DNA of 64,000 bases from Leucoraja ocellata. Taxonomy: Eukaryota. The notes below the pieces were generated by a model. The model was not told the origin of the DNA and made no database searches. It worked only from the letters and a program-made list of their open reading frames with translations. Both the position numbers and the translations under genes were made by a program. The stretch is taken from positions 9,920,001 to 9,984,000 of the forward strand of contig JAWMAR010000026.1 of assembly GCA_036785375.1 (NCBI GenBank). Reading direction: 5' to 3'. Positions 3,664 to 61,735 of this stretch are shown in pieces. Every line of letters starts with the position of its first letter. Positions within the stretch are counted from its first letter, which is position 1.

Positions 3664-4364
3664 GTAAATGTTGCTACACTTCGCACGAGCATGTAACCCC
3701 ATGGAAGCCTCTGACAACGCGTTAGTTCCCAACTTCACCAGGTGGAGAAGTGGCCAATTCCTCTGACCCACTCTGGGATATCAGTTTCTTTCCCCCCCGC
3801 CCCATACCCTCCTGTTTGTCCTCAACTGAAGTTACTGATCTCTGCCACATAAAAGTATTTGCTTGGCTGTGGTGCTTGTGCATGTACCAATAGCGTTGTG
3901 GTTGAGTTGTTCGAACATGGGGTCATCATAACTAATCCTGTCCCCGAGTGTGGTACCGGCTGTGTATGGGGAACTGAAGCAGCATTGCAGTATCAGGTAG
4001 TGGGAAGGTGGTTTCCCAGTGATATACCTGATCTGAGTTTGTGCTGAAGGTGGGATTGCCCACAATTACCCTCTTCCCATTTTGAGCAGAAGTTCAGGAG
4101 TCTCCCTCTTTCCCAGTCCATCTTTTTGCTGCATGAGTTTCCTGCTGATGTAAACTGTCATGGGTTCTGGGGATGATCCTTGTTCAGTGGGCCCCCATTC
4201 AGTCTGTGAGATTAGAGCGCGGATGCCAGGACATGTGTGCTCCACTTTAGCTGAATGTGAGGTGTATTTGGTGATCTTTCACCTCAGATCGTGATTGGAG
4301 CAACAGCGTGCTGTAGAGTTAAGTTGTTATGTGGGATTAATGATTGGTTTCATTTCATTTGCAG

Positions 4365-4442
4365 AAAGATTACTTTCCAATTAACTACACTGTGCAAGTT
4401 CATTATGAAGATATTTATCGAACGATAAATGTTACTCGGATG
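4365..4442 (+). CDS. IL34: IL34 coding exon 3 (KDYFPINYTVQVHYEDIYRTINVTRM)
   Basis: tttcatttgcag acceptor, atg|gtaggt donor, 78 nt. Matches human KHYFPINYKISVPYEGVFRIANVTRL with the same length and the NVT sequon. Missed by the ORF track. Confidence 0.97.
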
Positions 4443-5499
4443 GTAGGTTTGAATTCAAAAAGATCAACTTCTCTTTCCTGGTTTTCCTAACATGTCTCTG
4501 GATTGTGAACCTCTGAGCTATCAATCCATTGCGGATTCAGAGTCCTCCTCCTGCATCTTGCAACTATCCAACTATGCTCCTCTCAAGCTGGGTTCCAGAA
4601 GGATAGATATGTGGTGTTGGGGGTTACTTCTCTCCACTCTCCTGCTCCCATTCCCTCCTCTGAGGGACCATCTTCATGTTGGTGCACTTTTGTTTTAGTA
4701 TGTGGCATGCAAAACTCTTTCTGGAGTACACTGCTTTCTTTACCACAAGCCCCATCAGGTTGCCAATGTTGCGTGGTTGTGCTTGGGAAGAGGAGTTGAC
4801 TCATTGGATGAAAAACTACTTGCTTAGTGGGGCATCTATAACAAGCTCGGGTCATCATGCCTCATCATGCTTCATGCCTCCAAGATACCTTTGGAGCTTT
4901 GACCCTATTGTAACTATCAAACAAAAGGCAGCAAATTCACTTACAGGTATGTCTAACTTTAATAAGGTTTAACAGTCAGGAGTATTTAGTAGGTTTTGCT
5001 GTTTTGTAGAGATTGAATCCCGTGTTTAGTTTGAACCTGGCCAGTTACTTATGCATTCTCATCTTTATCTTCCATTCGCTGCCTGTCCGACCCATTTTGT
5101 ACCCAACTTCTGGAGGTTTTACTGATCCATTGTAAAAGCTTTTGCCTGCCGAATCAGTCATTGCAAATATGCAGTGCCCTGATAAATATGCACCAGGACT
5201 TTCTAAAGCTCTAACCTTTGGAGACATGAAACCTCACCTTCCAACTTTTCCAGTTTTTGTTAAAGAATGCCAACATGTTAACATTTCAGGTGGAATTTGT
5301 ACGTTAGTGTTGCTTCTGGTCATTTTAACGAAAACTGCTTGAACAGTCTTGTATTTCCTCAACAATAACTGCGATAGATGGAATGAATGCCAGCAGACAT
5401 CGGCCACTTTCAGTCCAGCCTTCCCTGTCTGTCAGAAAATAGTGCAATACAGACTGTTCCTTCCATTGCTGCTTCTTTCAGAAAGCTATTCTAGGAAAT

Positions 5500-6062
5500 A
5501 GAACAGTACAGCACAGGAAAAGCCTTCGCCCCATCATGCCTGCACCAATCATGATGTCAATCTAAACTAATCTCATTTTTCTGAACACGGACCATGTCCC
5601 GCCATTCAGGTGTCCTTTTAGATGCTTCTTAAACACTGCTATTGTATCTGCTCCCACCACTACTCTTGGCAATGCGTTTCAGGCATCTATCAAGGGGAGT
5701 AACTCATCTTCGACCAATGTCAGTTGGTCCCTCACTGGGAAACACTTATGTCAATGGGTAAAAGACTCTGCCTATCAAACTTGTCAACAACTCTTAATTG
5801 TATACCCCTTTATCTGCTCGCCCCTCAACCTCTGGCACCCCAGCACAACTAATCCTGGTTTGTTCAATACTTCTTATCATTGATCCCTCTAATCCAGGTA
5901 ACATCCTGGTAAACGTCTTCTGCACCAACTCCAAAGCCTCCACATCCTTCCTGTGATGGGACAACTAGAACTGTATACTATGGTCCAGATGCATCCTACC
6001 CACAGTATACACAGCTACAACACGACTTCCTGATTTTTTTTTTATACTCGGTGCCCCGACCG
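5500..6062 (-). mobile_element. Decayed CR1-like LINE 3' fragment
   Basis: Reverse complement resembles the CR1 ORF2 end and tail seen at 57394-58267. Confidence 0.7.
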
Positions 6063-6451
6063 ATGAATAAATTCTCCTCGACTCCTCCGATTTCTTTGTC
6101 GGATTGGAGTATGTGTGTGTGTGTATTCGGCAATCTAACCACGTCGAACCTCTGAAGCATTAGGGAATGAGCCTGAGGGGATGGACTTAAAATACTTAAT
6201 ACCGAAGAATGCAGTTTTTAGAGAGTTCAAGCTGACTGTGATTGGAGAAAGATGATCTTCATGAGAGGCCAGTAAAACCACACACAGCTCGATGTAACGT
6301 GGCAGGATGTTGATTTTCTGCTGGGTTTTTTTTCAGCAAGTAGAATTTAGTTTTCAAATAAAGTCTGAAGTCCTGAATGCTGAAGTGTAAATCAATTGCC
6401 ATTTGCCTCTGCTATCAGGTAATTAATATTCATCTCAATAAGTTCACTTTT

Positions 6452-6775
6452 GGGCGGCACAATGATGCAGCGGTAGAGTTGCTGCCTGATAGCGCCAGAG
6501 ACCCGGGTTCGATCCTGACTACGGGTGCTGTCTGTATGGAGTTTGTACATTCTCCCCGTGTGGGTTTTCACCAAAATCTTCAGTTTCCACCCACGCTCCA
6601 AAGAGGTACAGGTTTGTAGGTCAATTGGTGGGGTATAAAACGTCAAATTGTCCCTAATGTGTGTAGGATAGTGTTAACATGCGGGGATTGCTGGTCGGTG
6701 CAAAGACGGTGGGCCGAATGGCCTGTTTCCGTGCTATATCTCTAACCTAAAATTAAAATAACGAAACTAAAAATT
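6452..6775 (+). mobile_element. Full-length tRNA-derived SINE (HE1/V-SINE type)
   Basis: A box and B box (gggttcgatcct), conserved core, CR1-like tail gggccgaatggcctgtttcc and an A-rich end. Confidence 0.88.
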
Positions 6776-7074
6776 CTCACTGGATGAAACCCCACTGAGG
6801 TTCAAAACCCCCCACTGCACCTACTTTAGATCGCAGAATCTGGGAAGGACAGAGCAGTTGCTGAGAATGACTCTGGTTGTAGTGTTCTCCTAGGTCCTAC
6901 AAGCCACGAGGAAGGGAGTCAGTGGAGTATCGGATGGTGAGAAGCTTTAGTGGAATGATATGAATTGATATGAATTGGAGGGAGAAACTGACAATTGATT
7001 TACACTTCAGAATTTCTGACTGTCATCATTTTGGTTCCATTTTCTTTTTTTGTTCCATTATACTCATTAAGAAG

Positions 7075-7635
7075 GGCATTGACTACACAAGTTGGGATAT
7101 CATGATACAACTCTACAAGTTGTAGGTGAAACCACACTTGGAGTATTGTGTGCAATTCTGGTCACCATGTATCGAAATGATACCATTAAGTTGGAAAGAG
7201 TGCAGAAGAGATTCACCAGAATGTTTTTGGGACATGTGGGGTTGAGTCGTAGGGAGAGGTTGGATAGGCTTGCTCCTTTATTGTTGCAGCATATGAGTTT
7301 GAGGGATGGCCTTATTAAAGTACATGAGAGGCATGGATAAAGTTTTTCTTGGAGAGAGAATTTTAAAACTAGAGGGCATCTAGTTTATCTTATCTCATCT
7401 TATCTTAAGATAAGAGCAGGGAAATCTAAGTGGAACTTTGTTTACACTCAGAGGGTAGTCGATATTTGGAACAAACGACCGGAGGAATCCATCGTTGCAG
7501 ATACAATTAAGAGTCTCAAAAGATATTTGCACAGATATATGAATAGGAATGGTTTAAAGGAATAATGCCACAATTTGCTCAGCAACGACAAGTTGGGCCA
7601 TATAGCCTGTTTCCAAGCTGTATGGCTCTATAACT
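7075..7635 (+). mobile_element. CR1-like LINE 3' fragment
   Basis: KLERVQKRFTRM motif and CR1 tail. Confidence 0.85.
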
Positions 7636-7736
7636 AGTGTAGTCTGACCTACTAGGCATGTTCCACTGTTCCGTTATGACAACACACTATACAAAGAAGT
7701 AGTTGCGACAGGTACGATAACAACATTTAAAATACA

Positions 7737-8784
7737 CTAGACCAAGTGCAGAACCGTTGGGTCTGCTCCCCCAACGCAACGTGAGCAGGGCGGAGCCGAG
7801 GCCAGCGTGCGAAGCAGAGGCCAGCGTGCGGAGTAGAACCAATGAGTCGATGGTGGGTCGACCTCAAACAGTCCAAAGTGATGGTTGGGGAGCTGCTGTT
7901 TATGAAATGAGGCCCTTCCCCTGACATCACTGGAAGGTGGTGGAATATTCTGTTTCACTCTACCGTTGGGGGGAGGGCGAGGGGGGAGGGCGAGGGGGAG
8001 GGGGGAGGGGGGAAGGGGAGGGGGGAGGGGGGAGGGGGGGGAGGGGGGTGTTATGGTGTCACTGGAAGTGGTGCTTTAAATCGTGGTTTTTGCTATCCAT
8101 TGTGATTGGACGTCTGTGAGTGGCATTGTGACATCATCATTTGAAGCTGGTGGGAAAAGGCTCTCTGTGAGGTGTTTTTTGCCTTTTTTAATAAATTTCA
8201 AAGATGAATAACTTTGGAAATACAGGTGGGGATGCAACGGGAAGATGTTTATCGCCACCACGGGGAAAATGTCAGTAGGATGTGTGAAAATGGGAAGGCG
8301 TTTGTAAGAAAATAGGAAAACCAGATTGACACAGATACGCCACGTGGGCACATCAGATTCAGATTGAAACTTTATTGGCATTGTGCAGTGTACAGTACAG
8401 AGACAACGAAATGCAGTTAGCATCTCCCTAGAAGAGCGACATAGAATATGAGCAATTAATAAATATATTTACGTGCATACAGTCATAATAGTGCAAATAT
8501 TTTTTTCCTGGTGGAAGGAGGGGGGGGGGGGGGTGATTGGCAGTCACCGAGGTACAGTGTTGAGTAATGTAACAGTCGCAGGGAAGAAGCTGTTCCTGGA
8601 CCTGTTGGTCCAGCAACAGAGAGACCTGTAGCGCCTCCCGGATGGTAGGAGGGTAAACAGTCTGTGGTTGGGGTGAGAGCAGTCCTTGACGATGCTGAGC
8701 ACACTTCGCAGACAACGCTTGCTTGTGTTCTACAACACCTGTTCGTGGGCACAAACAGAACAAAATCTTTTAGTATTATATAGA
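7737..8784 (-). mobile_element. Non-autonomous Helitron
   Basis: On the - strand it starts TCTATATAAT and ends CTAG. Subterminal hairpin at 7748-7766. Inserted between A and T with no TSD, inside a CR1 tail that rejoins cleanly. Confidence 0.85.
8353..8725 (-). mobile_element. Rex1/Babar-like LINE 3' fragment nested in the Helitron
   Basis: Microsatellite-like tail with AATAAA on the - strand. Translation FTLLPSGRRYR...NSFFP-like. Confidence 0.7.
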
Positions 8785-11082
8785 TTTGGACAGGTACATG
8801 GATAACAAGGGTTTAATGGGATATGGGTCAAATGGATGTAAACAGGGGTAGTTTAGAAGCAATATCATGGTTAGTTTGGACAGGTTGGGCTGAAGGATCT
8901 GCTTCCATGCTGTATTACTTTACGACTCTAAGAAGTATAACGTGCTTCAAACTGCTGCATCAACTCATGACCTAGTAGAGACATTCACTTTGTTCAACCA
9001 CTCTACTGTTGAAAACTTTTTTTTCCTCATTTCTGACTAAGGGAATTTCACCTGAAATGTTGACTCTCCCTCTACAGATGCTGACTGTTTCCAGCATTTT
9101 CTGTTTTGTTTTACTTCAAATAATCCTGGAGTAAATCACAGGGTCATGTGTAGCTCAGTCAGAGATGCTTCCTGATCCTTTGAGTTACTCCAGCACTTTG
9201 TGTCTAACCTGGTGCATATTGGTTTATTATCGGATACCCATATATTCCAAGTCTGGTCTCTGAGTGGCTCCAGTCCCACATTGGAGATTCACCTCAAGTG
9301 CAGAATGTCAAACCACTCCAGCGGTGTGGACTGCTGCAGTTGGAAGGTTGACACAAGACAACTGGGCAGTGAATGAGTGCTGTCTTGCCAATAATGCTCC
9401 CTGTGGGAATGAATGAAATAAAACCACAACTTCTAAGGTCATTGACAATCTGAAGACAGTCTTGTGATTTTGGGATGGGTGTAGGTAGTTTGTCACCTAA
9501 CTTACAAACACTGAGCTATTCTTGAATTTCTTCCACATATTCAGCATTTATGGTTACTGTTTATAGTTCGGCAAAATACATGGATCATAATTCCCACACC
9601 ATTCAGCCCATGGAATTGATGCTAGCTTTTGGAGTAAACCCCACTTCTCTCACTTATTTCCCTGTAACCTCATCTCTTTCACATACCCATTAGCTCACCC
9701 ATATCTTCCAACCACACGCTAGAGGCAACTTTACAGTGGACAATCAAAACATGTCTCTGGGACATGTGAGGAAGCCCATGTGGTCACAAGGAGAATGTGC
9801 AAACTACAGACATACAGCACCAGAGATCAGGATTGACCCTATCGCTGGAGCTGTAATACAGCAGCTCCAGTAGCTAGATCCCTGTGTGCTGCCTCTAACA
9901 AATCATGAAAGTTGATCTGCAGAGCAGGTCATGTCCCTCAACCTGGGCCCTGTGGCTAAACCTGAGAGTGTTAAGATACTCTAACTTTAATTGGAGTCAT
10001 AAAGCGTGTCATTCCGTTGACGCAACTTATCCATGCCGACCAAGATGTCCCATCTAATCTAGTCCAATTTGCCTACCTTTGGCCCATATTCGTCTAAACC
10101 TTTCCTATCCATGACTGGGAAGGGAAAATGGTGCTTTCCACCATGCAGTAGTCTCCAAGTAGTCTGTAGTAGTCTGCCAAAACAACCATGACTTCATCAC
10201 TTGTGAGAATCTGATTCCTAAAACATCACCACTCTTGGGGCAGGCAGGAGCGGAGGGAGCTCTGGACGTCCGGGTACATCTCTAGCATGCCTGCCAGTAT
10301 CTTGCCCTGCCCTAAACTGTGTGACTGGTATAATCATTGCATGGGAGCTTTGTGTTATGAGCTATCTCAGGAATTTCTTATCATTCTTATCACGCAAATG
10401 CAATCAGGAAGTAATGCATGGCAATCAAACAAGAAAATGTGTATGGAGTAAATGGATGTTTGAGCCAATAATTTATTGTGGTCATGAACATTTTAATGAG
10501 AGTAGTAAATGAGACCAAGAAGCATATCGATCTGACCACATTCGCACAGTAGGATACGTGCTCTGTTTAAGATCCAGTGGAGCTTAGCTTGTGGCTCCCT
10601 CTACAGACCAGTGCTTTTAACCCTGTTTGTGAGGCCCACACTGGCTAATTGTTCTAGAAATAAGAGTGAAAGCTTCCTTGCCCTGAGTTAGCCCTTGGCT
10701 TGTATCGTTAAAACGAATAGCCTTTGTGAATGAGAAAGGGTGAGTATGTAGCACCATGGCTGGGTGACAGCCTTTCAAAATTCACATTTCAGCCTCATTA
10801 TCCAAAGAGGCATAAAGGGCTTTTGCAAAGATGTAAATTAAACCACCCAGGGAACATTCTGGGAGGATAATGTGAGGGGTTGAAGCTATGATTTAATTTT
10901 GTTGGAGAATTGAGATGATTTGAAACTCTAGACGCTTTGGGTTATAGTAAACTTGTAATAAAAGATCCCAGGAGAATTTAAGCTGTATGATTATATGGAT
11001 GCATGTAAATATAGAGACTCTCTGCTTGTCACTCTTGTATCCACTTCCCAATGGAATGTTTGCCTCTCCTTTTTTTTCATAG

Positions 11083-11250
11083 AGAAACAGAGGTTTTACT
11101 GAAAGTGACCTGAAGTTGTTATGGGTCTTCATTAATTCTCAAGTGTTGGAGACAATCCTTGATGTTCTTCCAAAAAGACACCCATCTAGAACCTATGTGG
11201 AGGATGTAGCCTTGCTGTTTAATTATTTGAGGATGGGTGTGGAAGAAATG
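11083..11250 (+). CDS. IL34: IL34 coding exon 4 (RNRGFTESDLKLLWVFINSQVLETILDVLPKRHPSRTYVEDVALLFNYLRMGVEEM)
   Basis: tttttttcatag acceptor, atg|gtaagt donor, 168 nt, phase 0/0. LWV...DVL..HPS..Y matches human LWVLV...DVLLEGHPSWKY. Confidence 0.95.
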
Positions 11251-11789
11251 GTAAGTTCTGCGGAGAAAGCAAAAGAGATTGATTGAAGTTCATACATGAG
11301 CAAAAATAGCAAGGTGGTTTTTTTTTTGTGTTGGAGGCAGCTGCTCAGGCAGCATCTGTGGTGGAAAAAAGGCAGACGATGTTTATAGTCAGGTCCTATT
11401 CTTCAGATTGCGGGTCTGTTCTTTTACTTATGGTGCTCCAGGTTAAATGAGATTCAATCAAGATTTGAGAACTCCTCTTTGCCCTCCCACACTCACGATT
11501 GCTGCCCTCACTGCTTTCTGTTCCACCCACAGCTCAGTTTTGAAATCTCCAAAATTTCCAAATGTGTGTTATGCGCTTACAGTTATGAGGGCGGTGATCT
11601 GCATGCTTTACACTGACATCAATCAATGGGCTATAGCAGTGGAGTCACTGCTACTTCTCTCTGACAACAATGGTTCTTACTACGATTTGGATCAGTAGTT
11701 TCCACCATTCTAAATGAAATCCCCCGTCCACACTCAGTAAAATATGTAGCCAACCATACATGCATGTAGCCAACCATACATTCCTGATG

Positions 11790-11901
11790 GTACACAAACG
11801 TTGCCTATTTCCTTTGCTCCATAGATGCTGCTGCACCCGCTGAGTTTCTCCAGCTTTTTTGTGTACCTTCGATTTTCCAGCATCTGCAGCTCCTTCTTAA
11901 A
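11790..11901 (+). mobile_element. Short Penelope-like retroposon with 15-bp TSD
   Basis: TSD catacattcctgatg at 11775-11789 and 11902-11916. Confidence 0.75.
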
Positions 11902-12087
11902 CATACATTCCTGATGATGTCCCGGCTGTTCCTTTAAAGGAAGCTTAGTTCAGCTTGCAGCTCTAAGGCCAGAGTAACTATTTGTGCTGAATGTGTTTCT
12001 ATTTAGTTTCCAACTGAATTACCCCATAAAGCCTCACAGACCTTGTGTCATTATGCACTTTCCCCTCTCCATAGACGATCATACCTC

Positions 12088-12225
12088 AGTCTGAAGAAGG
12101 GTCTCGACCTGAAACGTCACCCGAATGGAGAGCATCTCTGCAGAGATGCTGCTTGTCCCGCTGTGTTACTCCATCATTGTGTGTCTACAGTATAAACCGG
12201 CATCTGCAGTTCCTTCCCACACAGA
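12088..12225 (+). mobile_element. Penelope-like repeat with hammerhead-like core
   Basis: CTGAAGA-A-GGGTCTCGACCT-GAAAC-GTC at 12091-12118, followed by the family body. Confidence 0.65.
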
Positions 12226-12924
12226 ATATCATACACCTTGGGTTGGGACCCAGTCATCTGGATGATACCATTAGGGTTTAAATTTTGTGTGTTTCTACAA
12301 GATTTGGTGCTAAATCAAAACGTACCACTGGATAATGCCACAAGGCAAGAAAATCAGAGCAGGATTAGGCCGCTCAGCCCCTCTAGCTTGCCCTGCCATT
12401 CAGTACGATTGTGGCTGATTTTTTCCCAGGCCTCAACTCTTCTCCTGTGATAGTTACCCATCGCCCTCAAATTCCCTGATCTTTCAAAAACCCATCTACA
12501 TTGTATTTTAAATACTTCCAGTAGAGAACTCTAGAGATTCACCACCCTTTCCAAAGTAGGTTCTTGCACTCCTCAGTTTAAAATGAGGGCTCCCTTTCCC
12601 CCCAGCCCCCCAAATCTTATACCTCCATACCTTTGTTCGAGATTCTTCCATGTGTGAAAACATCTGCACATAACCATATTAAGCTCCCTAAGGATCTTAA
12701 ATGTTTCATAAGATCATCCCCTTATTCTTATTAGAATATACTAAATAGTCGAGAAATTGGGACTTTATTGAATTAATCTAGTGGAAACAATTGCAAATCT
12801 ACTCCGAAATGACAAAATCCAATCCTGGATGGCAGTGTGGTTTAAGTGTTCATTTCTTCGTCAGCTGGTGGAGTTACGTTGCTGCTGTTCAGTGAATCCT
12901 TCCTTTTTTTCATTGGATGTTCAG

Positions 12925-13063
12925 ATTGAAGACATTGAGGATGAGCGAGTGGAGGAAATACTCTATCGAATCAGTGACATGGATGTGGAGAGCAGAAGGA
13001 GGTGGATCAGACCCAAGGCTTTATTCGATAACTGTTACCGAGTATTGAAACAAATCTTCCACT
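12925..13063 (+). CDS. IL34: IL34 coding exon 5 (IEDIEDERVEEILYRISDMDVESRRRWIRPKALFDNCYRVLKQIFH+t)
   Basis: gttcag acceptor. RPKALFDNCYRV matches human RPKALLDNCFRV. Consensus donor ct|GTGAGT in phase 1. Confidence 0.93.
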
Positions 13064-13579
13064 GTGAGTGTTGGCAGCATTGGCCCCAATTCAAGGCTTT
13101 TACTTCCCAAGTAGAAGCCAAATATCGGGTACCACAGAGTTCAGTTCAATGTTAAACTTTGTAAGGGTGCATAGATTGCTGTGATAATCTTCATCTTACA
13201 AAGAGGTTCTTAGTATATCTTTAAGGGCCTTAAATATATTATAGCTTCAAATGTGGTGAAGAAATCAGAGTTAACTATATTCTTGAGCAATGTTGAGATA
13301 AAGCACCCTGCCATGGGAAGGGGTTGACAACACTGGCAAAGAAACCTTTGGGATGGTAAATCTAAAAATGTGTGACCATTAGTGTTGGATGACTATAGAA
13401 AATTCTGAAATAGACCACAGAGTTGGACAGTCTGTGTTTTATATAGCTGGTGTCAAGAAGTGTGTGTCGAGCCATATAGTCGAACAGCACAGAAACTGAC
13501 CCTTTGGCCCAGCATGTTCATGTTGATCTTTTTACTAATCTAAATTAATCCCATTTGCCCACATTAAGTCTGTAACTTT

Positions 13580-15766: not shown

Positions 15767-17070
15767 TGTCTGAATGCTTCTAATGTCTTCTATCCCATAC
15801 AATGCTGTGACTACAGGCTGTTTGCACAGCCATGTTGTGTACTTATTGCATCTAGATATGAATAAAAAAACTATACGCTTTTTTGGGAAATAACAATGGC
15901 TGAATCCCATTCTCCCTCAAACCATGTCCTTGCTCACCGTCCTGGACTGGGAAATAGATTGTTGTTCCCTCATCATTATTGGGTCTGAATCTGGAACTAG
16001 CGGGACAGCAGCGGACCAAGTGATCACCCCTTATTCTCAAGGGCAGGAGTGGATGGGCACATTCCTGCACAATGAGTGAAGCAAGTTCAGATATACAACC
16101 ACAGGTAGCATTGCTGGGCCAATATCTATTGTCAATTTTGGTAACTCTAAGACTGCTGACTATCCTCTGTTCTTTAAAGGATTTATTTACCATATTTACA
16201 ATTCCAGTATTTACACATGTACATCAAATCAAAACGTTGACATCCTTGTCCAGGATACACTCCAGTAGTCCCACCGCTCCCAGAAGGTCTCCAGAGAGCC
16301 AGTGAATAGCTTGTGCACCCTCTCCAGAGTCACCCTGACTGGACCCTTGCTTGTGGTATCCATCACTAGGTGACGTCTGTGGCCAGACAGCCTCTTGAGA
16401 CTTCCTAGTGAGGCACAAGAGGATGCTGATTATGTTTAAGTACTGTCTGGATACACCCTGTTCCTCGTCACACAAACAGGCAAGCAGGTAGAAGGCAGGA
16501 GAACGCACAACAATTTGTACTGTCCATTCCAAAGAATAGTTGCAGATCAGGATAGTTAGCGCAAGCTGCGTCTATCTGCACATTTGTCTCAAACTGTGGA
16601 CGTATATTAATAGTTAAAATGCAAGTGGTTGACAGTATTCATGCAAGCTGACAAACTGACTCTTTGATTACCGATACAACTTCTTTACATATCTTCAGTT
16701 ATTGAAACTGAATGGATTGTTTTTCTTTGAATTCCTGATGTGCAGATTAGCCTGTGAGCACAGCTCAATGTTCATTGGCTGCTATCCAAGGCTTGCACAG
16801 AACTGAATCAATTAGCAAATGCTGTTTGAAACCTTCGGCCCTTCAGTTTGAAAACGGAAGAGTCATCGCCCTCTCACCTGTCAAAGTTGAGGAATGAGCC
16901 TTGGCTACAATGTTGTAAAATTATAGAGCACCAAAACAGGCCTTTTGGCCCAACTCGTTCATGCTGTTCAAGATGTCTATATGAACTAGTCCCATTTGCC
17001 TGCATTCGGTTCATATCCCTCTAAACCCTTTTCTACCCATGTACCTGTTCAAGTGTCTTTTAAATACTGT

Positions 17071-28920: not shown

Positions 28921-29069
28921 CTGCTTCTTCTTCTTCTTGCGTATGGCATGCACAGCCTAAGGTTGAAAGACAATTTATTCTATTTGATCTTATTTGATTG
29001 TGCACGCCAGGTTGATTGCATTTGTCGAAACAGGGCGGACCACGTGAAGGTTGCAATCTCCCCCCCATA
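28921..29069 (-). mobile_element. About 150-bp short retroposon with (GAA)n tail and 9-bp TSD
   Basis: TSD taggaactt at 28912-28920 and 29070-29078. (TTC)n at the left end. Confidence 0.7.
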
Positions 29070-30287
29070 TAGGAACTTATAAACTCCTTCACATTTATCC
29101 CTTTTAAACGCAACATTTAACTTTAATTGAATTTGGACAGATTACTACTGGAGAATAGAAACAGGAAATGCTGGAAATACTCATTAGGACAGCTCACATT
29201 TGTGGGAAGAGAAACGGAGTTAATGTTTCAGGTAGAAGATCCTTTGTCAGAATTGGGAAAAGAAATTTAAAAAACTTTAAAAAGAGAAAGGAAAATCTGA
29301 CGGTAGTTTTTTCTCTTTTTTTCTGCACATTTTTTTTCTTTTCCCTCTCTGAGAGTGGGAGACGTATCTAGCCTGACCTGCAGGCACAACTTTCTGTTTC
29401 GCATCTCACAACTACCACATTCTTTTGTCTGTGTTCTCACTCTCTAACTGTTCCGATCACATCATTGACCAGATAACGTTTTTACCCTGACCTTTACCAC
29501 CCTCCCTACAGTTTAACAAGATTATTTTGTCTCTTTCCCAGATTTGACAAAAGATCTTCGACAAGAAATGTTAACGTTGTTTCTCTTCCCTCAGATGCAG
29601 CCTGGTTGCTGAGTATTTCCAGCATCTGTAGTTTGTTTTTGACTTACCACAGTTAAAGTTAGAAATCAAATGTAAAAACAAAATACTAAGCAGGTTGGAT
29701 AGCATCTGTGGAGAAGCATTTTATGTTTCAATTTGAAGACTCTTCATCAGATAAGTGAAACGTTAGTCTAAGTAGCAGAGCAAGTGGGGAAGTGTCTTTT
29801 TTCAGATTTTCATGATCTGCAGTTCTCTTGATTTTCACTCTTCTCAATTAAATCAAATCTGTTTTAAATGTAAGCAGCGTGAGGAGGGGTGGGGGGAACA
29901 AAGAGAATGTCTGTGATGGTAAAAACCTAAACGAGAAAGGTATTGACCATAACATGTCCATGGTATTTATTCTCTCTTGTCCACCGTTCTATCAGATAGT
30001 CCCTCCCTCTTTTCTTTTCACCCCAAACATCTTCTCTGCAACAAAAAAAAGTTTCCAATATTTTCTGGTTCTGATGAAATGTCATTGGCCTGAAACGTGA
30101 TCTGTTTCTACCACCACAAGCAGTGACTGACCCACAGTATTTCCAGCAGTTTTACCCATTTTGATGATAATTCACAAGTTATCCTTGTTCTTGTCACTTT
30201 TAGAATATAACTTCCACTAGTTACAATCCATTGTGGGGCAACTGAAAATACTTTGCCTTGCAAATGAATTCCAATTAAAGTTTCAAA

Positions 30288-30500: not shown

Positions 30501-33500
30501 CTGTAATTTTTATTTTCCAATTTTAGAGTTTGCTTTTTGTTTTTATCTGTATATTAATATGTATATCTCCTATATTAATTACTCTCTGCATAGTGTTAAT
30601 TAAAGGTAAAGAATTTTACTTCCTGGTTTTTTGACCATCAGAATTCATCATTTGGATTGGTAGCTCAGCCAACGTTGACATTATTGTTGACATTCTTGTT
30701 ACTGGATGTCACATAGTCCCAAAAAAAGTGTTCTACAACTACTGATGAAGCGGAAAACCTATATTTCACTGACCCTGCACATTCTTTGCGGGCAAGATGG
30801 TCCACGTTTGGAAGATCACTTCCTTGCCTTGACCAGAAATTCTTGCCTAATGTTGTAGAGGTTATGCTGAGCACACAGGGTGTTCAATATATTTCTGACA
30901 TATATGAGGTTATCCCAAACATTGTGATCATTTAAAACCATCATCAACTTTTACTGCCTTTGTTCCGTTACACAGCACCTTCCCAAATACCACACCTGGC
31001 CTTCACTACAATGTTAAATCATTTTCAGTGCTGGTGTGCACAGGTCTCCCTCAGAAACAGTCACTGCTGATGTCTCTCTACTCACAAGCAGTACCTTTAT
31101 CCATGGGCCTAAACCAGTAAAACCATGCAAGTGGGACTGACGTGCCTCTATCTACCTCTCAATCTCATAGCTGTGGATGGGCCCCGTTAATAGCGTCATG
31201 GAGAATGGGCCATGTTTAATGGTCAGCATGGTTTCCATGGGCCAATCAAACACGCATTTACACACTAAACTGATGTAATTTTATTCTGCCACTTTTCTTT
31301 AACCAACCACTCCACCCCCCATACCACCACACACCAGGGGCAGTTTACAGCAGCCAATTAACCCTCCCCACACGAAGAGACTGGAGCATTTGGAGGAATC
31401 CCACACGGTGACAGTGTGAGCGAGCAAACTCCACAGAGGCGGCACCACAAGTCTACTGTCTCGGTTGCTGCAGCGGTGAAGCAGCGAGTCAGTCTACCAG
31501 CTGCACCACTGTGCCGCCCCTCTGTTAATGTACCTGCAATAATACCAGTGATGGTGCCCAGGGAACAATCTCATGAGATCAGTGTCCATGCAATCGTTCT
31601 AGTTTCCTTCAAATCACTGGAGTTTCCACACCAATGACATTCTACAGAAGATAAACACAAAAAGCTGGAGTAACTCAGCGGGTCAGGCAGTATCTCTGGG
31701 GAGAAGGGATGGGTGAGGTTTCGGATCAAGACCCGTCTTCAGACTTCATGACATCCAATGCTGGCTGTTGGCGGTGCCGAGGGAAATCTCTCCCTGCAAA
31801 CACTACTACTCCATCACACCCAGACCCATCATTCAGATTGATTCAGCTTGCCGGGTGTAGTTCTATCCAACTGCTCAGGAGTCTGGATCTCCTGGTTACG
31901 GCGCGATAGACTGGGGCGCCTGTGCTCCACTGGACGGGAAGGTGGATGGGGAGAGAATGAATCGGGAGGCTGTGTCAGGCCGGGGAGGGGGTGGAGAAGA
32001 AACATAGGCTGGCAGCTTTCTACAGTACAGCTTTATTAATACTGGAAACATCACAGTGCGATTGAGGCTTCAGCCGGTGAGAGTAAACAAATTCACATGA
32101 TTATAATATTACAAAAGAGGGTGGAAAAGACGGTTACCAACAGCACCGGGAACATCACTTCAGTGTTTCTTTTTACTCTTTGTCTGTACAAAAAAAAAAT
32201 GGTGACGAGTGCTGCTCCCTGAAAATGTCCCGAGAATGGCCGTGGGGCAGAAGAGCGTGGAGAAGCAGCGGTCGGTGCCCTGCTGCCGGGAGGGACAGTG
32301 GGCGAGCTGGGCTGTGGGGCAGGAGGTTGGCGGAGCTCTGGCAATGTACCCACTTGCCGACCATTCCTCAGCCGGGCCGAGCCCTATTGCCGGTGCCCCA
32401 CGCTGGTTTTCCCTGTTGCCCCCCACCCCACATGCTGGAGCTGATTCCTATTCAACGTGCCTCTTGAAGTTCTCCACACCACAGCCTCGTCTTCCAATCC
32501 CAAAGCCCCTCTCCATCCCTCCACCCGAGAAATACTTCTGGCAAGTCGTAATCTTAAAACAAAAAGGCTGTTTAATGTGCCATTGCAGAGAACGTCTGCG
32601 CCCTGTGGATGAAAAAAATAAATACAAGGCCGACTTAATCAGGATAAAGCCGAGACAATCTGAGACATACACTAATTTGAGAAGCATCTTGGTGATTTGC
32701 CACTCCCGGTCAGTTTGTCCAATCTATAGGTTACCATCAGAAAGATAATGTATTTTGCAAGTTTGTATTTCTATAGCACCAAGTCGCTTAACAAAGACTT
32801 TACACCCTCAGATAAATAAATACCAGCGCCAAGCCACACACAAGAGACACTGCGACCGACGTGGCAGAGAAGTAGGCGATAAGGAGCATCAGAAAGCAGG
32901 AATGCACTTAACTGGGATCAGTGATGTTTGGGGAAGGGAGCGCCGCAGATGGGATTTCAGGCAGCCTTTTGGGTAACTCTTTCTTCGTTTTTAGCTCATG
33001 TTAACAGATCTTTAAACGCTCAAATTCAGTAGCCCCGATGTACCTTCCAATTGCCTGCCATACTCCAATTAATAGGTCTACCCACCTGGATGCGTTTATT
33101 GTGAAATGATCCCCCTTCACATGAAAGCACGGCAGTTGTTGGCGTTGTTTCTACGGGGTCTAGAGACCTTGTCCGGTACTTCACGTTCGTTCTGGTTCTG
33201 AGTAACATTGGGCACCAGACCACGGCTATTTCGCAGCTAATGACAGCTGGTTTCTGACAATCCCTGTTCGCGTGAATCTTAGGAGCAGTGTTTCAGCAGA
33301 CTGGAACTTTGGCTGACCATAACGCACGCGTTTGACCCATATCCCTTCAAACTTTCCCTATCATGTAGTCTGAATTGAACCTGAACTCCCTTGTACAACT
33401 CCAGTCTGGGACATGGAGGTAGATGGGACTTGGCAGCTAGTAGTGAGGCCAGTCATTTCAGGCGAAAAGAACAAACACAAGAAGGGGCTTTGTCTGCAGA

Positions 33501-34640: not shown

Positions 34641-37600
34641 GTGGCCTGCCTTGGGGAGCTCAAATATTGTAGGAAGACTGAGGAGAAATTCCATTCGAGA
34701 AAAATCCTTCACACCCTATACCACAACTGCAACTCTATAACATTTCTTTCAGCAGCTGCTCGTTTCAAACTAAAACTCACAATTAATTTGCATCCTGATG
34801 TATTTATTAAATTATTGCACAACTGTAACAATATAAAATGTTGCTTAAAGTGAGCTTATTAGATCTGAAGCCATGAGGCAAGTTTTAATTCAGGGTCTAG
34901 CATTATACAACTCTGAACCATCTTTAACAATCCTCGTTTCACAAAAGGTTAGCCAACTCAGTCACGGCATCAATATATGCCTCCATTCAAGTTCATTACT
35001 CTTCCATTTCATTAATTTCTTACCCTGCTAAATTAAAAATAAATGATCATTGGTGAAGATTGTGCTGGTCACTTAAATGGATACAAATGTAAGACTGGAG
35101 TTGGCAGTTATATCTAAGCAGGGTCTATTGCAATTATAAAGTCTTAGGCTGGGCTTTTACTGAGGGAACAGGCCTTTGACAACTCACCCTTGGGGGGGGG
35201 GGGGGGGGAGGTCAGCAAGAGATCTCCAGACCCAGCTTTTTGGTCCCTGGGTGCGGGTCTAGATGCCACTCAAAATAATTGGGACACTTCTAAGCTTAGA
35301 AACAGTTACAGTGCTCAATATTGGTTGACACTGCCCAACATTGCTGACACAAGCAATAACAAAACTACTGAAGCAACCCAACCAGTTGAGCAGTATCTGT
35401 GAAACCAAAGGGACAGTTGATATTTTGGGTCGACAACCTGCATCAGTACGGCAGGGTTTCGTTTGAAATGCTGACTATCCCTCTGCCTCTACAGATACTG
35501 CCTCACCCGCCGAGTTCCTCGAGCATTTGTTTTTCCTTTATTATAGATTGCAGCATCTGCAGTTTCTTGTATCTCCATTTTATTGTAGACACCAGGATTG
35601 GAGCTGGCATTTTGCACACTTACTCCATTTTCAGTGCTGTTTCTACCAAACCTTGAAACTTTGCACAAAAAATACCAACAAATGTCTTTCAGACAAATGT
35701 CAAAATATTCAATTTGTAGATTTGAAAAAAAAATCTAAAAAGCTATTAAAAATCACAATTTGTATTCATTTTCTGGAAACGTCTATATAATATTAAAAAC
35801 CTTTTTTTTCCCTGCAAGTGATAAAGGATTATACAATGACTAATGAATCATACAATTTCTCATACACATTATTTCACAAATATCTAGCTAATAAATACAA
35901 ACCATTTTCCATTAAGCAATCATTTAAGGGTGATATAGAATATAAGCCTTATTCTGTGTTGCACATCACAACATGTTTTGAGGGTGTTTGCTCACTGTTC
36001 AACAATGGCATCAAGTACATGCCTCATCCCCTGCAATCCAACTGTTCAATGGGGTGAATCTTGACTTTAAGAGCTGTTCTTATGCTTTTGAGTCATAAAG
36101 AGTTAAGTTCAATTCCTTTCCAAGCACACGATCCAGACTGGTGTTTCAAAGAAATATAAAGTGCTACAAGTTGCTGTCTTAGACCAATGCTCCAATCTGA
36201 CACATGCTATAATTTAAAACAGTATTGGCAATCTCTTGCAGTACAGTAGCCACTCCTTATATCTTGCCCTGTATCACTGATACAGATTACTGGGTCATCC
36301 TTCTCATTTGTCTTTGTAAGACTTGGGTATGCATTGTGTTTTTGTTATACAACACATGTCACAATGCATTTTATTGCAAATCATCATTTTCTACCCTTTG
36401 TTCGAATTACTGAAGTAATTATGGCTAAAACGAAAGATCCAAATGAAAACCAGGAAAGATGTAATTCTAAAACAAGCTGAAAATTAGAGACAGTGCTTAA
36501 AAGGTTAAAAGATGGAATTGTCATTGCTCGGAAGATCCCTCACCAAACTGCACTTGTCTCTTAGGTCATTTCAAGGTGAAGGACTGACATTGAACATCGC
36601 TTCATGACCAATAGAGTACTGTGGTATAACTAAACTCTTACCAATCCACTAGGTTATTTGGCGCTCCTGAAGACCCTGGAGCTAGACTAGCCATGTAAAG
36701 AACTGGACTAATAATCCAAAGAAAGCCTGTCCAAATCCCAAGTTAGCTTCTCTTGGTTTTGAATCCTTTTTTAAAAAGACAGCATTATTTGTAGATTAGA
36801 CCAACATTCCAATTAACTAACTAATATGGTTTAGTGAAGGAGAACTTTCTGACTATCCTCTTCCTTTTTATTTGTAACCATAACACCTCAAGCAATATAG
36901 CCACCTGTCTTCTGAAGTATCCAAGTGAAACACTTAATTATACTGAAAGCCGTACAAAGAGAATTAAATTCTAAATCAATAGCATCACCATCACTGGCTC
37001 CAAGTCACCTTTCCAACAATGAGGGAAGGGGAATAAATGCTGGTCTTGTCACACCTTCTGATAGATGCAAGGGTGATGTGGAGGGGGATTTAATTCACCT
37101 CACAGTCCAGAAGCCACAGGGGTGGACAAAGAGCACAACCTTTACCCGTGTTCTACTTGGATCAAGTGTGTAATATTAACTAATGTCAGCAGTTCTTTCC
37201 CACAGCTGGGAATTCCAACTAATCCAAGAGTAAAGAGAATGCAAGATATATCTACACAGGATAAGCTCTCCAGAACATATCTAGACAAACATAAAATTGG
37301 GGAGTCCTCAGAAGTCTGCTGTGATGAGTAAACACTAAGTTGAAAAATATAAAATGCTCAAAACACTGCAGGTCAGGCAGTATTTGTGTGTGAGGAAGTT
37401 GCAGGTTATTGATCTTCTGAATGTTCCCAGCATCTTCTGCTTTTATTTCAGATTTTCAGCAGCTGCAATTTTTTGATTTTCAAACACTGAGAAGTGTTTG
37501 GTGCCCAAAACAAAAAAAGCACATCTTACATCTGCAGCCTCACTTTATTCCAATAAAATCTAAGAATGTGCTGGTTACTGCCCATAAGCCCTCTGAACAA

Positions 37601-38384: not shown

Positions 38385-39190
38385 TGGATAGAGTGGTGAA
38401 GAAGGCCAATTGCATGCTTGCCTTCACAGGTCGGGGCATAGAATATAAGAGTTGACACATTATGTAACAACTGCACAAAACACTAGTTGAGCTGCACTTA
38501 TAGAGTACTGTGTGCAGTTTTGGTCACCATACAATAAAAAAGATGTGGTTGCACTGTGCAGAGAATGTCGCTTGGATCAGAGGACGTTAGTTATGGGGAG
38601 AAACAGGATAGGCTGGGCTTGTGTTCCCTGGAGTGAATGAGGCTGAGGGGTACCTTACAGCAGTGTGTATGATTACGACAGGCATGGCCAGGGTAGATAG
38701 TCAAAATCTTTTGTCTGTGAATGGGGTATCAAAACCAGAAAAGCATGGATTTAAGTTGAAAGGAACTGAGGGCAAAGTATTTTACACAGAGGTAGACAAA
38801 AATGCTGGAGAAACTCAGCGGGTGAGGCAGCATCTATGGAGCGAAGGAAATAGGCAACGTTTCGGGTCGAAACCCTTCTTCTGAAGAATGCTGCCTCACC
38901 CGCTGAGTTTCTCCAGCATTTTTGTCTACCTTCGATTTTCCAGCATCTGCAGTTCCTTCTTAAATATTTTACACAGAGAGTGGTTGATATCTAGAACTGG
39001 CTGGCAGAGGAGGTGGTGGAATTAAATACAATTCCTATGTTTAAGAGGCAAGTAGAAAGACTCTTAAATAACCAAAGCATAGGAGGATATGGACCTAAAG
39101 CTGGCAAATGGGGTTAGTGTAGATGGGTATCAAGGTCAACATGATGTGGTGGGCTGATGGGACCCTTTCTGTGCTGTACGACTATGACTA
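38385..39190 (+). mobile_element. CR1-like LINE 3' fragment carrying a nested palindromic insertion
   Basis: EYCVQFWSP-like motif and CR1 tail. Confidence 0.8.
38792..38964. mobile_element. Palindromic Penelope-like insertion with perfect 14-bp TSD
   Basis: TSD tattttacacagag at 38778-38791 and 38965-38978. About 42-bp perfect inverted arms gtagacaaaaatgctgg.../...ccagcatttttgtctac. Confidence 0.8.
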
Positions 39191-50548: not shown

Positions 50549-51995
50549 CTGGGGAAGGGTGCAGAGGGTAAAAACGGGTGAGGGAGGGGAGGAAGGAAGA
50601 CAGTTTAAGTCATCAGACTTACCAATAACAAAATTACAGCAAAACAGGAGGCTACAGTCAAAGGGCGGCACAAATTTATTTCCTTCATTTGTCTTATAGA
50701 AACATTAAAAATTCTTTAGGGATTGGGCAGGCTAGATGCAGGTTAAATATTCTCCATGTTTTGGGAGTCCAGAACCAGGGGTCACAGTTTAAGAATAAAG
50801 GGTAGGCCATTTAGGACTGAGATGAGGAACATTTATTTCACCCAGAGAGTTGTGAATCTGTGGACCTCTCTGCCGTAGAAGGCAGTGAAGGCCAATTCAC
50901 TGGATGTTTTCAAGAGAGAATTATATTTAGCTCTCAGGGCTAACTGAATCAAGGGGTATGGGAAAAAAGCAGGAACGGGATACTGATTTTGGATGATCAG
51001 TCATGATCATATTGAATGGCAGTGCTGGTTCGATGGCCCAAATGGCCTACTGCATCTGTTTTCTATGCTTCTGGTATAGGTTTTCCCTACTATTTCAAAG
51101 GGCATTAAACCAGCATGCTGATGTGACTGGTTAAGGAGGGCAAATTTCCCACCACTGAATGGGTTTTTGCAACAATCCACTTGTTTGGGAGTCTAGCTGT
51201 TCTTAGTTTTCTTTTTCTGAATATTACATATTATTGAATTTATTGAATATTGAAAAGAATTGAATTTAAACGTCACAGCTACCATGTGAGATTTGGACTC
51301 AGGTCTCTGGATGGTTAGTGCAGACTTTGGGGGGTTATAAAGTTGGTAGCTTAATTACTGCATTATCACCTCACCCCATTGATAGGACAATTATGGTATT
51401 AATGTTAGGTGCTTGGCACGTTTTCCTCCCTCCTATCCTCTCTCCTCGTTTAGATCACAACTTATAACAAGGCCATATCAACGTTCCTACCTCTGTGCAT
51501 CAGTTAAACCTATTGCAGGGTATAAAGCCCCAGTATTGAGAGCCTTGGTAGAGGCAAAGATCCACCAACTTTTCCAGGGACAATGAAAAGATGCCCTTGT
51601 CATTAATAGCAGAGGCATTAGTCAGATAAGGAAGGATATCATGCTTGGACTCACTATTGAATTCCAGATACTTATGAATGAAGGACATTGATTCCTTGAC
51701 AGGGGTGCAGGAAGGATTTACTGAAACAGGACTTCTGTAAAAAGACTGAATCTGTGTTGCGGAAGACATGAACAAAATCTTGAGTAAAATACAAACTGCT
51801 CGAATTACTCAGTGGGTCGAGTTATGTAGAGGAAATGGACAGTCAACATTTTAAGTGTGGACCCTTCTTCAGACAGCTGCTTACCTCCACATTCCCCACT
51901 GAACCCGTACTACATAACTCCTGCTAGTTATACGCCAGTCAGGATTGGAAACGTTAACAGCTAAACATATGCGTTGATCTGTCAGGCATACACAC

Positions 51996-58267: not shown

Positions 58268-60339
58268 CTGCAGTCCATCTGGCGAGGATGCTGTTGGAGA
58301 AGGAATTCCAGGTTTAGAAGAGTGAAAGACCTGGTAATATGTTTCCCAGTCAAGATTGTGAATCAGCGGGGAACCAGCAGGAGGTGGTGTTCCCCTGCCC
58401 CTGCTGCCCTTTTCCCTCCTGGCGTCGAGGTCAGGGATTGGGAGTGCAGCTGAGAAGGGCCAAGGATATATCATTTATATAGTTTAGGAATGTGCAAAAC
58501 ACACGGCAGTTAAAATGCATGCTGAAAGAGGTTGACTCTTTCCCCCCAGAAACTGCTGCTTTGCCAGAGGTTGGGGAAAAGTAGTCAACGCGGGTAGGAA
58601 TTGCAACAGAAGGCAATTAATTCTCTCCTCCATCAGTGCTGGCAGTTCCATGCCTTCCTGCAAAGGGCAGCAGAAGCAAGGATCCCGATAAGAGCTGAAC
58701 TGCAGTAATTCAAGCCACCGGCTATCTGCCACTCCTTGAGCGTAAATAAGGATGGATGAACAATAAATGCTGGCCCTGAGAAATGGATTTAGAAAATGAA
58801 ATCCTGGCCGTTCCCTTATCCACCTGTTGTCACATTAAATGCTGCACTGATTAGCAAACACAACACAGGTTGGGAGCAGATAGACCATAATAAATGTTGC
58901 AGTTTCTGTCCGATCTTATCAAAAACTGGGACAGTTCACCCCTCAACATGCTGATAAGAATTCAGGAAGTCATGTTATAGCTGTATAGGACTTTGGTTAG
59001 ACCACATTTGGAGTACTGTGTGCAGTTCTGGTTGCCCTATTACAGGAAGGATGTGGAGGCTTTAGAAATGTTGCAGATGAAGTTGATCAGGATGCTTCCT
59101 AGATTAGAGGATACTAGATATAAAGTGAGAGTGGATTAACTTGAATTATATTCTCTTGAGCATCGGAGGCTTTGGGGAGACCTGATAGAAGTATATAAAT
59201 ATATGAGAGGCATAAATCAAACTTGTTTGGTGGGGTGGCAATGTCAAAGATGCGAGGGCAAAGCTCTAACATCAGCCGTTCTGAACTGCAGATGCTGGTT
59301 TAAATCGAAGGTAGACACAAAAAGCTGGAGTAACTCAGCAGGACAGGCAGCATCTCTGGAGAGAAGGAATGGGTGACATTTCGGGTCAAGACCCTTCTTC
59401 TGTACCGTTCAATGTTTCATGTGTACATAGATACACCGAACCACAATTACAACATTAGACACAGATACAGCACACCATAATAATAAGCATTATATATAGA
59501 TAAGCCACATGGTAAAAACAAGCAAATTACATAGATTCACCTCACTGCATAAACAAAAACTGCACAAATAGACTACACCATAATAACAGGCAAATTACAC
59601 ATGCAGTAATATTGAACACTGTAAACTGCGACAGTCCAGAACAGTCATGCACAGCCAGAGGAAACACAGCAAGCAGGCAGTCCGTCCAGGTGCAGTATGC
59701 CACATCCAAATGAAATGATGGTTGAACAGTCAGTGTGGAGAGCAAGTGCTAGGTCAAGGCCTGTTGAAGCAAAATTCACGGCTACACTCTCACATCTCCG
59801 CATGTACCATCATCATTCTCCCACTCATCATCATCCTCAGCCCACAGCCTGGACTGGGGATAGACGCAGAAGGAAGATCCCTCCACCCTGTCTCATCACA
59901 CACTCCCAGGGCACGTGTTGGACTCCCGTGTAAAGCCCCCTCTACAGTGTCCCATCACACCTTCAGGGTCGGACATCGAGAAGAGCTCAATCGGTGAGCT
60001 GTAATAAAACGCTAGAAATTGGTGAAACTTTGGAAGTCGGCTATGACAATGGACTACAAAAGGTTTTCTTTTCAGGAGATTACTGCTTTGCAAGGTTTTT
60101 GTCTGTTTTCGAGTATTGTGGGAGGGGCATGGCTGACAGATTGTCAAAATGAACTTCTAAGCTCTGGTGGGAACTGAGAAGGACTTAATTTTGATTGTTC
60201 ACATCAGGAGTACTCCGACACTCCAATTGTCTAGCCCAGTTTGCTGGGTGATGGCGATTTTCAGCGATACCTTGGGCTTTCGTGAAGTCTGGGAAAGTAG
60301 ACTTCTTCTGACGCTGCAGAATCGGCTCAGAAAATCAAC

Positions 60340-61075: not shown

Positions 61076-61569
61076 TATGGAAAGTGAAGGGGGGGGGGGA
61101 TATGAGGGAAGGAATATGGGAGGGGGGGGGGGGGGTTCAGGAGAAAGAGCCTTGGAGTCTACGTGTCCTGGGGTTCAGCAGGGGACTGAGACGTCGGGCA
61201 ACAGGACAAAGTTACGGAGGCAAAGGATTCCCCCATAATGGAGGTTTCTGAGACTGCAGTTGGTCAAAAAGGAGACACACATTCTCTAAGTCGTGGATGA
61301 CCTTGAGGTACAGGGGCCTCAGAGGGGGTGATTATTCCCACCAAGACCCCATGCTCAGGTATCACGGCCACTGGGTTAGAGGATGCAGTACAGAAACCAC
61401 CTGAGGGGGCAGATTTGGTTATGGGGGTGGGTGGGGTGGGTGGGTCCCTGGCCAGATTGTGTGCCCAGTTGACTGGTTCCCCTTTCCTCTCTGCCTGTGT
61501 TTGTACAGGTGGTGGTTCTTTGCCTGCACAGATACCTGTACACCGAGCACCCCCCTCCATGGGTAGGAA

Positions 61570-61735
61570 AGGACTGCAGATGCTGGCTTAAATCGAAGGT
61601 GGACACAAAATGCTGGAGTAACTCTGTGGGAGAGGCAGCATCTCTGGAGAGAAAGAATGGGTGACGTTTCGGGTCTGAGGAAGGGTCTCGACCCGAAATG
61701 TCCCGCTGAGTTACTCCAGCATCTTGTGTCTACCC
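61570..61735. mobile_element. Palindromic Penelope-like repeat with hammerhead-like core
   Basis: CTGAGGA-A-GGGTCTCGACCC-GAAA-TGTC at 61675-61702, between inverted arms. Confidence 0.65.

Follow-up and report, generated by a model that had tools for sequence, protein, structure and literature searches.

The closest described counterparts of the motif analysed here are the minimal hammerhead ribozymes of Penelope-like retrotransposons (PLEs), which, as set out in PMC4209133, are type I motifs without helix III, with a palindrome at 15.2–16.2, an extra base between positions 9 and 10.1 and a G10.1–C11.1 pair, and which reside in pLTRs and occur mostly singly or as close opposite-strand pairs; the skate family shares all of these traits. 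Single motifs did not cleave in that study and dimers cleaved at a low level, and rolling-circle copying was proposed by its authors, Cervera and De la Pena (PMC4209133). The dimer-cleaving PLE hammerheads of Lunse, Weinberg and Breaker (2016/17, cited in PMC6765202) are likewise characterized by a very short palindromic stem III and predicted dimer cleavage, a likeness drawn from the description in that review and not from sequences or rates. In the anole Poseidon element PAc (Frangieh et al. 2024, PMC11167929), cleavage by the ribozyme required the protein of the element, and insertion in vitro proceeded without a functional ribozyme, mutations in it having no effect; uncleaved RNA was the main template, and no RNA-seq ends were seen at the cut site, as is also true of the relative's RNA described below. 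Taken together, PMC4209133 and PMC11167929 describe the same motif, with low activity, protein assistance and uncleaved RNA as the main template, and the role of PLE hammerheads is called unclear in PMC8557442.

Three further systems bear on the comparison. Neptune and Nematis EN+ PLEs (Craig et al. 2021, PMC8557442) have a single ORF with RT plus a C-terminal GIY-YIG domain, a CX2-5CxxC linker, partial tandems, an inverted 5' copy and a 30–40-bp tail, and the element described below resembles them in each respect; it differs from them in a long Pro/Ser-rich N-terminal part, its ORF being 1,221 aa long, and in a sharp 5' stop at the hammerhead that does not figure in the available passages of that paper. 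PAc is alike in having two RT start sites that bound the tail, 3' of the hammerhead (PMC11167929). It belongs, however, to the Poseidon clade, and its ATG overlaps stem II, whereas here the ATG lies 164 nt past C3 and the tail is non-coding. Non-LTR retrozymes, reported in one chondrichthyan (PMC7229834; preprint 10.64898/2026.07.22.740005), also combine a type I hammerhead with homology to PLE pLTRs, but they are short non-coding tandem units, whereas the present copies occur scattered, as monomers or head-to-head pairs, and what stands in tandem is a 3.9-kb coding element. A search of the supplement of PMC4209133 found no shark or skate entry, and a literature search, with Repbase/Dfam and subscription journals outside its scope, turned up no publication that treats the family in rays or a stop at G2.2.

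The window, a 64,000-nucleotide stretch of Leucoraja ocellata DNA, had been described in a preliminary description, made from the letters alone, as carrying at 12088–12122 a minimal hammerhead of the PLE type in which A9 is followed by an additional A and helix III is replaced by a palindromic stub. The sequence at these positions is as given there, and both features are present. C3 is 12091, the extra A is 12098 and GAAA is 12111–12114; helix II (12099–12102/12107–12110) has a G–U at 10.1/11.1 in place of G10.1–C11.1, the ACGU palindrome is 12114–12117, and the predicted cut is at 12118|12119. On the scale used for the family, C3 is 0 and the predicted cut lies before +28. Helix II and helix I are 4 and 2 bp here vs 7–8 and 4–5 bp in Schistosoma, and a 2-bp helix I also occurs in D. 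virilis (PMC4209133). The core CUGANGA / GAAA / UH of the PLE type is present in the pLTR in window copies, at locus L053 and in subfamily majority sequences, and an Rfam scan of the whole window returned zero hammerhead matches at E<=10.

Table 1. Family copies, hammerhead motif and host gene in the window (strand "." denotes head-to-head pairs; starts are given relative to C3 = 0).
Feature	Position	Strand	Remarks
Minimal type I hammerhead	12089..12120	+	CUGAAGA, extra A, GAAA, GUC; read from sequence, fold computed
Whole insertion, pLTR stub with ~35-nt tail	12087..12223	+	IL34 intron, sense
Young pLTR stub (96%) with tail	11796..11903	+	begins within GAAA, CUGA half absent
Old decayed pLTR stub	11338..11410	-	antisense, same IL34 intron as 12088 copy
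pLTR stub without tail, start at -3	31648..31745	-	16.2 mutated, palindrome lost
Head-to-head young pLTR stub pair	38790..38964	.	99% on - arm; core lost at junction
Old decayed pLTR stub, start at -2	51792..51875	-	
pLTR stub with tail, start at +2	59283..59400	-	CU of core missing
Head-to-head pair	61557..61730	.	+ arm = 61673-61730
Two decayed stubs	9033..9206	+	IL34 intron, sense; one broken core, one coreless
Four old stubs, more divergent subfamilies	29166..30152	29166-29252 -, 29549-29626 +, 29684-29751 -, 30070-30152 +	
Old head-to-head pair	35362..35528	.	
Host gene IL34	4365..13077	+	three exon matches to PF15036

The seven places listed earlier all hold family members, but their cores are mostly broken, and the two termed decayed (near 11375–11408 and 51843–51874) are family members that both lie on the minus strand; a profile search of the window gives 23 matches instead of seven. 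Every one of the five main listed cores carries a defect. The 31712 core has C at 16.2, the 38855 and 59372 cores have lost CU from CUGA, and the 61675 core has U at 15.2 and no helix I, with N7=G and an internal deletion on its arm; among the listed cores it alone passes the strict core descriptor, which ignores helix I. The window copies are stubs of 70–135 nt, each defective, and occur as monomers or head-to-head pairs. The stub that holds the 12088 core is 85% identical to its nearest ORF-linked copy, with its 5' end near G2.2 (12083–12089) and a degenerate 7-nt flanking repeat (12078–12084 and 12228–12234), and 14-bp target duplications flank both the young stub at 11796 (11776–11789/11903–11916) and the pair at 38790 (38778–38791/38965–38978). 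A tblastn search of the window for a GIY-YIG remnant found none, and since the window holds no GIY-YIG or ORF remnant, the link from its copies to the element rests on homology.

The 12088 copy does lie in sense in an IL34 intron, as had been stated, between the exons at 11095–11253 and 12940–13077, the first exon match being at 4365–4451. At 40767–41573 on the minus strand is the last exon of a WH2-domain gene (PF02205), which we take to be MTSS2, the neighbour of IL34; the copies at 31648 and 38790 sit downstream of its stop. The window also contains a broken LTR-retrotransposon pol remnant (21972–23991, plus strand) with RNase H matches and, by eye, an integrase-like frame, as well as two opposite-strand LINE 3' fragments, presumably of CR1/L2-like class (17064–17897 and 57390–58266), about 90% identical and 40 kb apart.

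Across the 3.44-Gb genome, the family is found far beyond chance. A 27-nt pattern of one core variant has 25,571 exact matches, with 0 for its reversed control, and a second, young core has 29,634. In a 1.2-Mb sample (120 stretches of 10 kb, chosen blindly from large contigs), the profile of the repeat gives 527 matches, with 0 in reversed sequence, which extrapolates to about 1.5 million pLTR pieces, so that the family has likely left over a million of them. The strict descriptor has 38 matches in the same sample vs 0 in the control; the resulting estimate of 100,000 descriptor-positive cores genome-wide compares with 4,000–9,000 in coelacanth and Xenopus (PMC4209133). A first look at the genome with the GIY-YIG and RT pieces gave 156,081 and 35,866 hits, which are candidates and not copy numbers, and at a strict threshold a GIY-YIG end lies upstream in 14 of 186 core-spanning matches.

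The link to an RT and GIY-YIG ORF, which had been named as a check, was found. In eight of the first ten core loci, the 3' end of a GIY-YIG frame lies just upstream of the core; at L053 a 777-aa open frame ends 109 nt before it, and generally the core is located about 110–120 nt 3' of the stop and 164 nt 5' of the ATG of a frame encoding RT, linker and GIY-YIG. Locus L057 comprises, in order, an inverted truncated copy, a 463-bp pLTR, an ORF interrupted by a single frameshift, another pLTR and a tail of 38 nt, with 100% identity among its repeats, an arrangement drawn in the legend of Fig. 2 of PMC8557442. Two arrays, C300 (L221–L222, four cores) and C8 (L223–L224, three cores), consist of near-identical head-to-tail units with cores 3,946 nt apart, from which three complete 1,221-aa frames were read. 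This single ORF carries DKG, YIDD, a CxxxxCxxC linker and C-terminal GIY-YIG-like motifs; its Pfam matches, RVT_1 (E 1.6e-6) and GIY-YIG (E 0.013), are both below the Pfam cut-off, and of 305 relatives the best 120 are 42–54% identical, most with RVT_1 and the same layout. Thus, the element shows the hallmarks of EN+ PLEs, namely a pLTR from tandem or partial-tandem units, an inverted 5' copy and a 30–40-bp tail. The CX2-5CxxC linker between RT and EN, known in Neptune and Nematis (PMC8557442), is present in the 1,221-aa frame, and on this motif the element is likely of Neptune type. The family is likely active now, or was until very recently. A separate, non-autonomous, retrozyme-like system, as had been envisaged, finds no support: the pieces are dispersed rather than arranged as short tandem units, and they are truncated ends of an autonomous element that has full units.

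Three observations concern the make-up of the element and its derivatives. The N-terminal part of the protein (L221:3587-5000), about 480 aa, is largely Pro/Ser-rich with no Pfam match, and most of the listed relatives are 700–950 aa long vs 1,221 aa here. At L003, L006, L012, L017, L019, L021, L024, L028 and L029, two different pLTR-bearing pieces recur in a constant partial-tandem arrangement with a spacing of about 700 nt, which may represent a non-autonomous PLE subfamily that arose by deletion. At L239, a fragment from the beginning of the element's ORF is followed immediately by a stub whose 5' end is G2.2, a junction for which a template jump or a nested insertion is possible.

How the core is conserved differs between source sequences and inserted copies. 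In subfamily majority sequences, the catalytic positions are fixed apart from CpG sites, and differences fall in loop II, 11.4, N17, 1.1 and 1.2 with pairing retained, the helix changes being one-sided; N7 is variable in older copies. The claim that helix II stays paired while its loop varies therefore stands for the majority sequences but not for single copies, in which 85% of cells are paired. The downstream boxes, a comparison also proposed earlier, are about as conserved as the core. Among 54 chosen copies, 82% of helix cells pair, the covariation score is 0.278 (matched by one of 500 shuffles) and both-side changes make up 13 of 311 cells (as high in 11 of 500 shuffles), both statistics ignoring kinship. 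Decay was followed in 295 near-complete copies out of the 527 matches. Within subfamilies, CpG decay in the core amounts to 65/232 (28%) at G12, 66/235 (28%) at C11.1 and 57/220 (26%) at G16.2, compared with 65/263 and 63/262 (24–25%) downstream. All 12 core bases are kept in 96 of the 295 copies and 22 are fully intact; the 10.1–11.1 pair is G–C in 167 and, via CpG decay, G–U in 69, like the 12088 copy. The non-CpG mismatch is lower in the core (156/2607 = 6.0%) than downstream (1012/12073 = 8.4%, p 2.7e-5; 7.3% when only subfamily-invariant columns are used), which may reflect the filter on the core together with unresolved subfamilies, or weak selection. Selection on the core of inserted copies is not supported, as decay is about neutral (G12 CpG 28% vs 24% downstream); in our reading, constraint would act on source elements, with little or none on inserted copies. 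Three decayed copies read by eye (L162:5101-5163, L167:340-402 and L189:7875-7937) carry one more C in front of CUGA, and in them the cut site is followed by GAC, which suggests a longer ancestral helix I that may have shrunk in younger subfamilies.

Of the 527 matches, 456 were aligned with flanks, and 172 of these reach the 3' box at >=88% identity. Their 5' ends fall at -6..+1, around G2.2, in 73 cases and at +25..+31, around the cut site, in seven, so that the stop rate is 0.134 per nt in the G2.2 zone vs 0.007; 47 of 108 copies with plain flanks start in that zone, and other starts scatter 3' of G2.2. The 3' ends peak at about +90–97 and +127–132, the two ends of the tail. Among the first 100 of the 29,634 young cores, examined by eye, 47 continue upstream, 23 start at -2 and eight at -3, a pattern expected if there is one stop, at G2.2, and some flanking bases match by chance. 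In 20 of the 23, which were retrieved for reading, a script found a flanking repeat of at least 7 nt in 15 (at least three spurious), the target duplication abuts G2.2 in seven of the 20 by eye, and three (L225, L241, L244) belong to the youngest 3' subtype. Several other causes of the peak were considered and rejected. An alignment artefact from unrecognised upstream sequence would leave pyrimidine-rich flanks, which are seen in just eight of 172, and the peak persists in plain flanks; a stop fixed by the distance from the RT start is at odds with tailed and tailless stubs sharing a start point; insertions templated by cut RNA are not above background (7/172 near the cut site); and the base before G2.2 (C11, A8, G6, T6, by eye) does not indicate a cap-G at the junction.

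Full-length copies behave otherwise. A second-pass sample was built from a query present solely in such copies, the 5' UTR plus ORF start, which gave 2,053 candidates; 40 matches were scored, and the top 30 of these were used. Three of the 30 end at +80..+89, and 27 cross the cut site and G2.2 without stopping, of which 11 end scattered from -38 to -1301 and 16 extend past -1367. Given the first-pass rate of 0.31, the probability of 0 stops in 27 is 4e-5, and it is 4e-4 if the insertions are counted as 21 independent ones, the two samples differing in subfamily mix. It follows that the two classes cannot both derive from one linear RNA that begins at G2.2 and that templates exceeding unit length gave rise to the long copies. 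One 13-bp target duplication bounds the C300 array, which measures about 13.3 kb or 3.4 units, and units differ per 2,300 bases by 0–1 within arrays, by 6–7 between C300 and C8 and by 15–21 between these two and L057. These findings fit rolling-circle copying; they fit equally a master array that is itself uniform and is transcribed by read-through, duplication in place, or polishing of the assembly. Stubs and full copies together fit two templates, linear RNA plus a circle or multimer. The sequence TCAGTC, presumably initiator-like going by the initiator consensus, would place the RNA start at -3, one base before the stop. That the genome records both templates of an active PLE, with linear RNA from the foot of the hammerhead giving hundreds of thousands of strong-stop stubs and unit-length circles, cut and ligated by the hammerhead, being copied repeatedly into uniform arrays in single events, we regard as rather unlikely.

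Folding predictions are not favourable to cleavage in monomers. A rival hairpin, in which the 5' strand of helix II pairs with bases past the cut site, is predicted at -7.1 vs -2.0 kcal/mol for the hammerhead at 12087–12124 and at -6.7 vs -4.5 kcal/mol in the young core; the palindrome duplex, a 4-bp intermolecular helix, would contribute only -3.1 kcal/mol, and fold z-scores are unremarkable in five of six stretches. In four RNA runs of a relative, of each of which 1–6% was compared, the repeat is abundant (24,780–42,539 reads placed, runs of 11.5–17.6 million), and no pile-up of RNA starts or ends occurs at G2.2 or the cut site. In the relative's single-cell run, reads of the hammerhead region (L027:1780-2270) are biased about 7:1 towards one of the strands.

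The reading that we consider highly probable is that the motif is a minimal hammerhead in the pLTR of an autonomous PLE, likely of Neptune type, and that the window copies are its 5'-truncated ends, likely made by reverse transcription, decaying and likely inert. The element protein would nick the target, and reverse transcription would begin at either of two positions immediately 3' of the hammerhead, in the way demonstrated for the anole element (PMC11167929). On a linear RNA with its 5' end at or beside G2.2, RT would run off after 95–135 nt and leave a stub, and on a longer-than-unit template, be it a circle or a read-through multimer, it would produce arrays and full units. Any ribozyme activity would be confined to element RNA, as a dimer or with the element's protein, and the core would be under selection in source elements but not in copies already inserted. 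The stubs could instead be an independent non-autonomous SINE- or retrozyme-like unit of 95–135 nt with its own start at G2.2, mobilized by PLE protein in trans. The sharp 5' end, the two fixed 3' ends (about +93 and +131), the target duplications and the large excess of stubs over ORF-bearing copies would fit, and the preprint 10.64898/2026.07.22.740005 derives retrozymes from pLTRs; this is nevertheless quite improbable, as the stubs read, those of the youngest 3' subtype among them, match ORF-linked subfamilies at 88–100%, 47 of 100 young cores continue upstream, starts scatter 3' of G2.2, and no short tandem arrays of the unit were seen by eye in the 1.2-Mb output. Inserted copies might also be dimer ribozymes cutting host pre-mRNAs such as that of IL34, given the sense intronic position, the abundance of the family in the relative's RNA and the estimated ~100,000 descriptor-positive cores. 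We hold this to be very improbable. The 12088 copy has G–U at 10.1/11.1, a predicted intermolecular helix of just -3.1 kcal/mol and a stabler predicted rival fold, none of the other IL34 copies in sense orientation has its core intact, decay is near-neutral, and single motifs remained uncleaved in PMC4209133. The working ribozyme proposed for the IL34 pre-mRNA would thus be a damaged copy (G10.1–U11.1, 2-bp helix I) with no intact sense partner, none being found elsewhere in IL34 among the profile matches of the window, and its cutting is unlikely.

It is hardly credible that stubs start at G2.2 because of a 3' splice site or a capped-start artefact, with an intron ending at helix I: a sequence resembling a donor at the stop of the ORF and, ahead of the core, some 100 nt of pyrimidine tract with CAG at its end would suit this, as would the D. 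virilis Penelope intron that ends at helix I (PMC4209133), yet there are 0 spliced-junction copies vs 8,841 unspliced donors, the spliced joint is absent from the 15 of 214 RNA joints listed, the base before G2.2 is by eye neither exon-like nor cap-G-like, and the youngest subfamily lacks a GT donor. More weight belongs to the view, less probable than not in our estimate, that even the active element carries no more than a vestigial hammerhead, kept through overlap with a promoter or protein-binding site, with the arrays arising from read-through transcripts or local duplication. Helix I has only 2 bp, and in the youngest subfamily its first pair is U–G and the triplet is GUU, which is weak for hammerhead cleavage. 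Monomers are predicted to prefer the rival hairpin, older copies (three, by eye) suggest that helix I was longer, the downstream boxes are conserved to the same degree as the core, and few insertions begin at the cut site, where no read of the relative's RNA ends; moreover, the anole ribozyme mutants were without effect on insertion in vitro (PMC11167929). Against this, the young subfamilies all keep the catalytic positions, the extra A, G10.1–C11.1 and the palindrome, N7, loop II and N17 vary as a hammerhead permits, the covariation score of 0.278 is reached by only one of 500 shuffles (by a statistic that ignores kinship), and the arrays are uniform inside and distinct from each other. A vestigial hammerhead is compatible with the stub part of the preferred reading, that of truncated ends of an autonomous element.

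Both the motif and the class of its host element are already known, and what is new is a family member. As a very young vertebrate PLE with about a million end pieces, it is a useful system in which to test PLE replication, since the start and stop points of copying are documented in great number. The sharp stop in the first pass, set against none in the later one, makes the circle model directly testable in one species, and the two-template reading, if true, would provide genomic evidence for the rolling-circle model and for a role of the PLE ribozyme in vivo.
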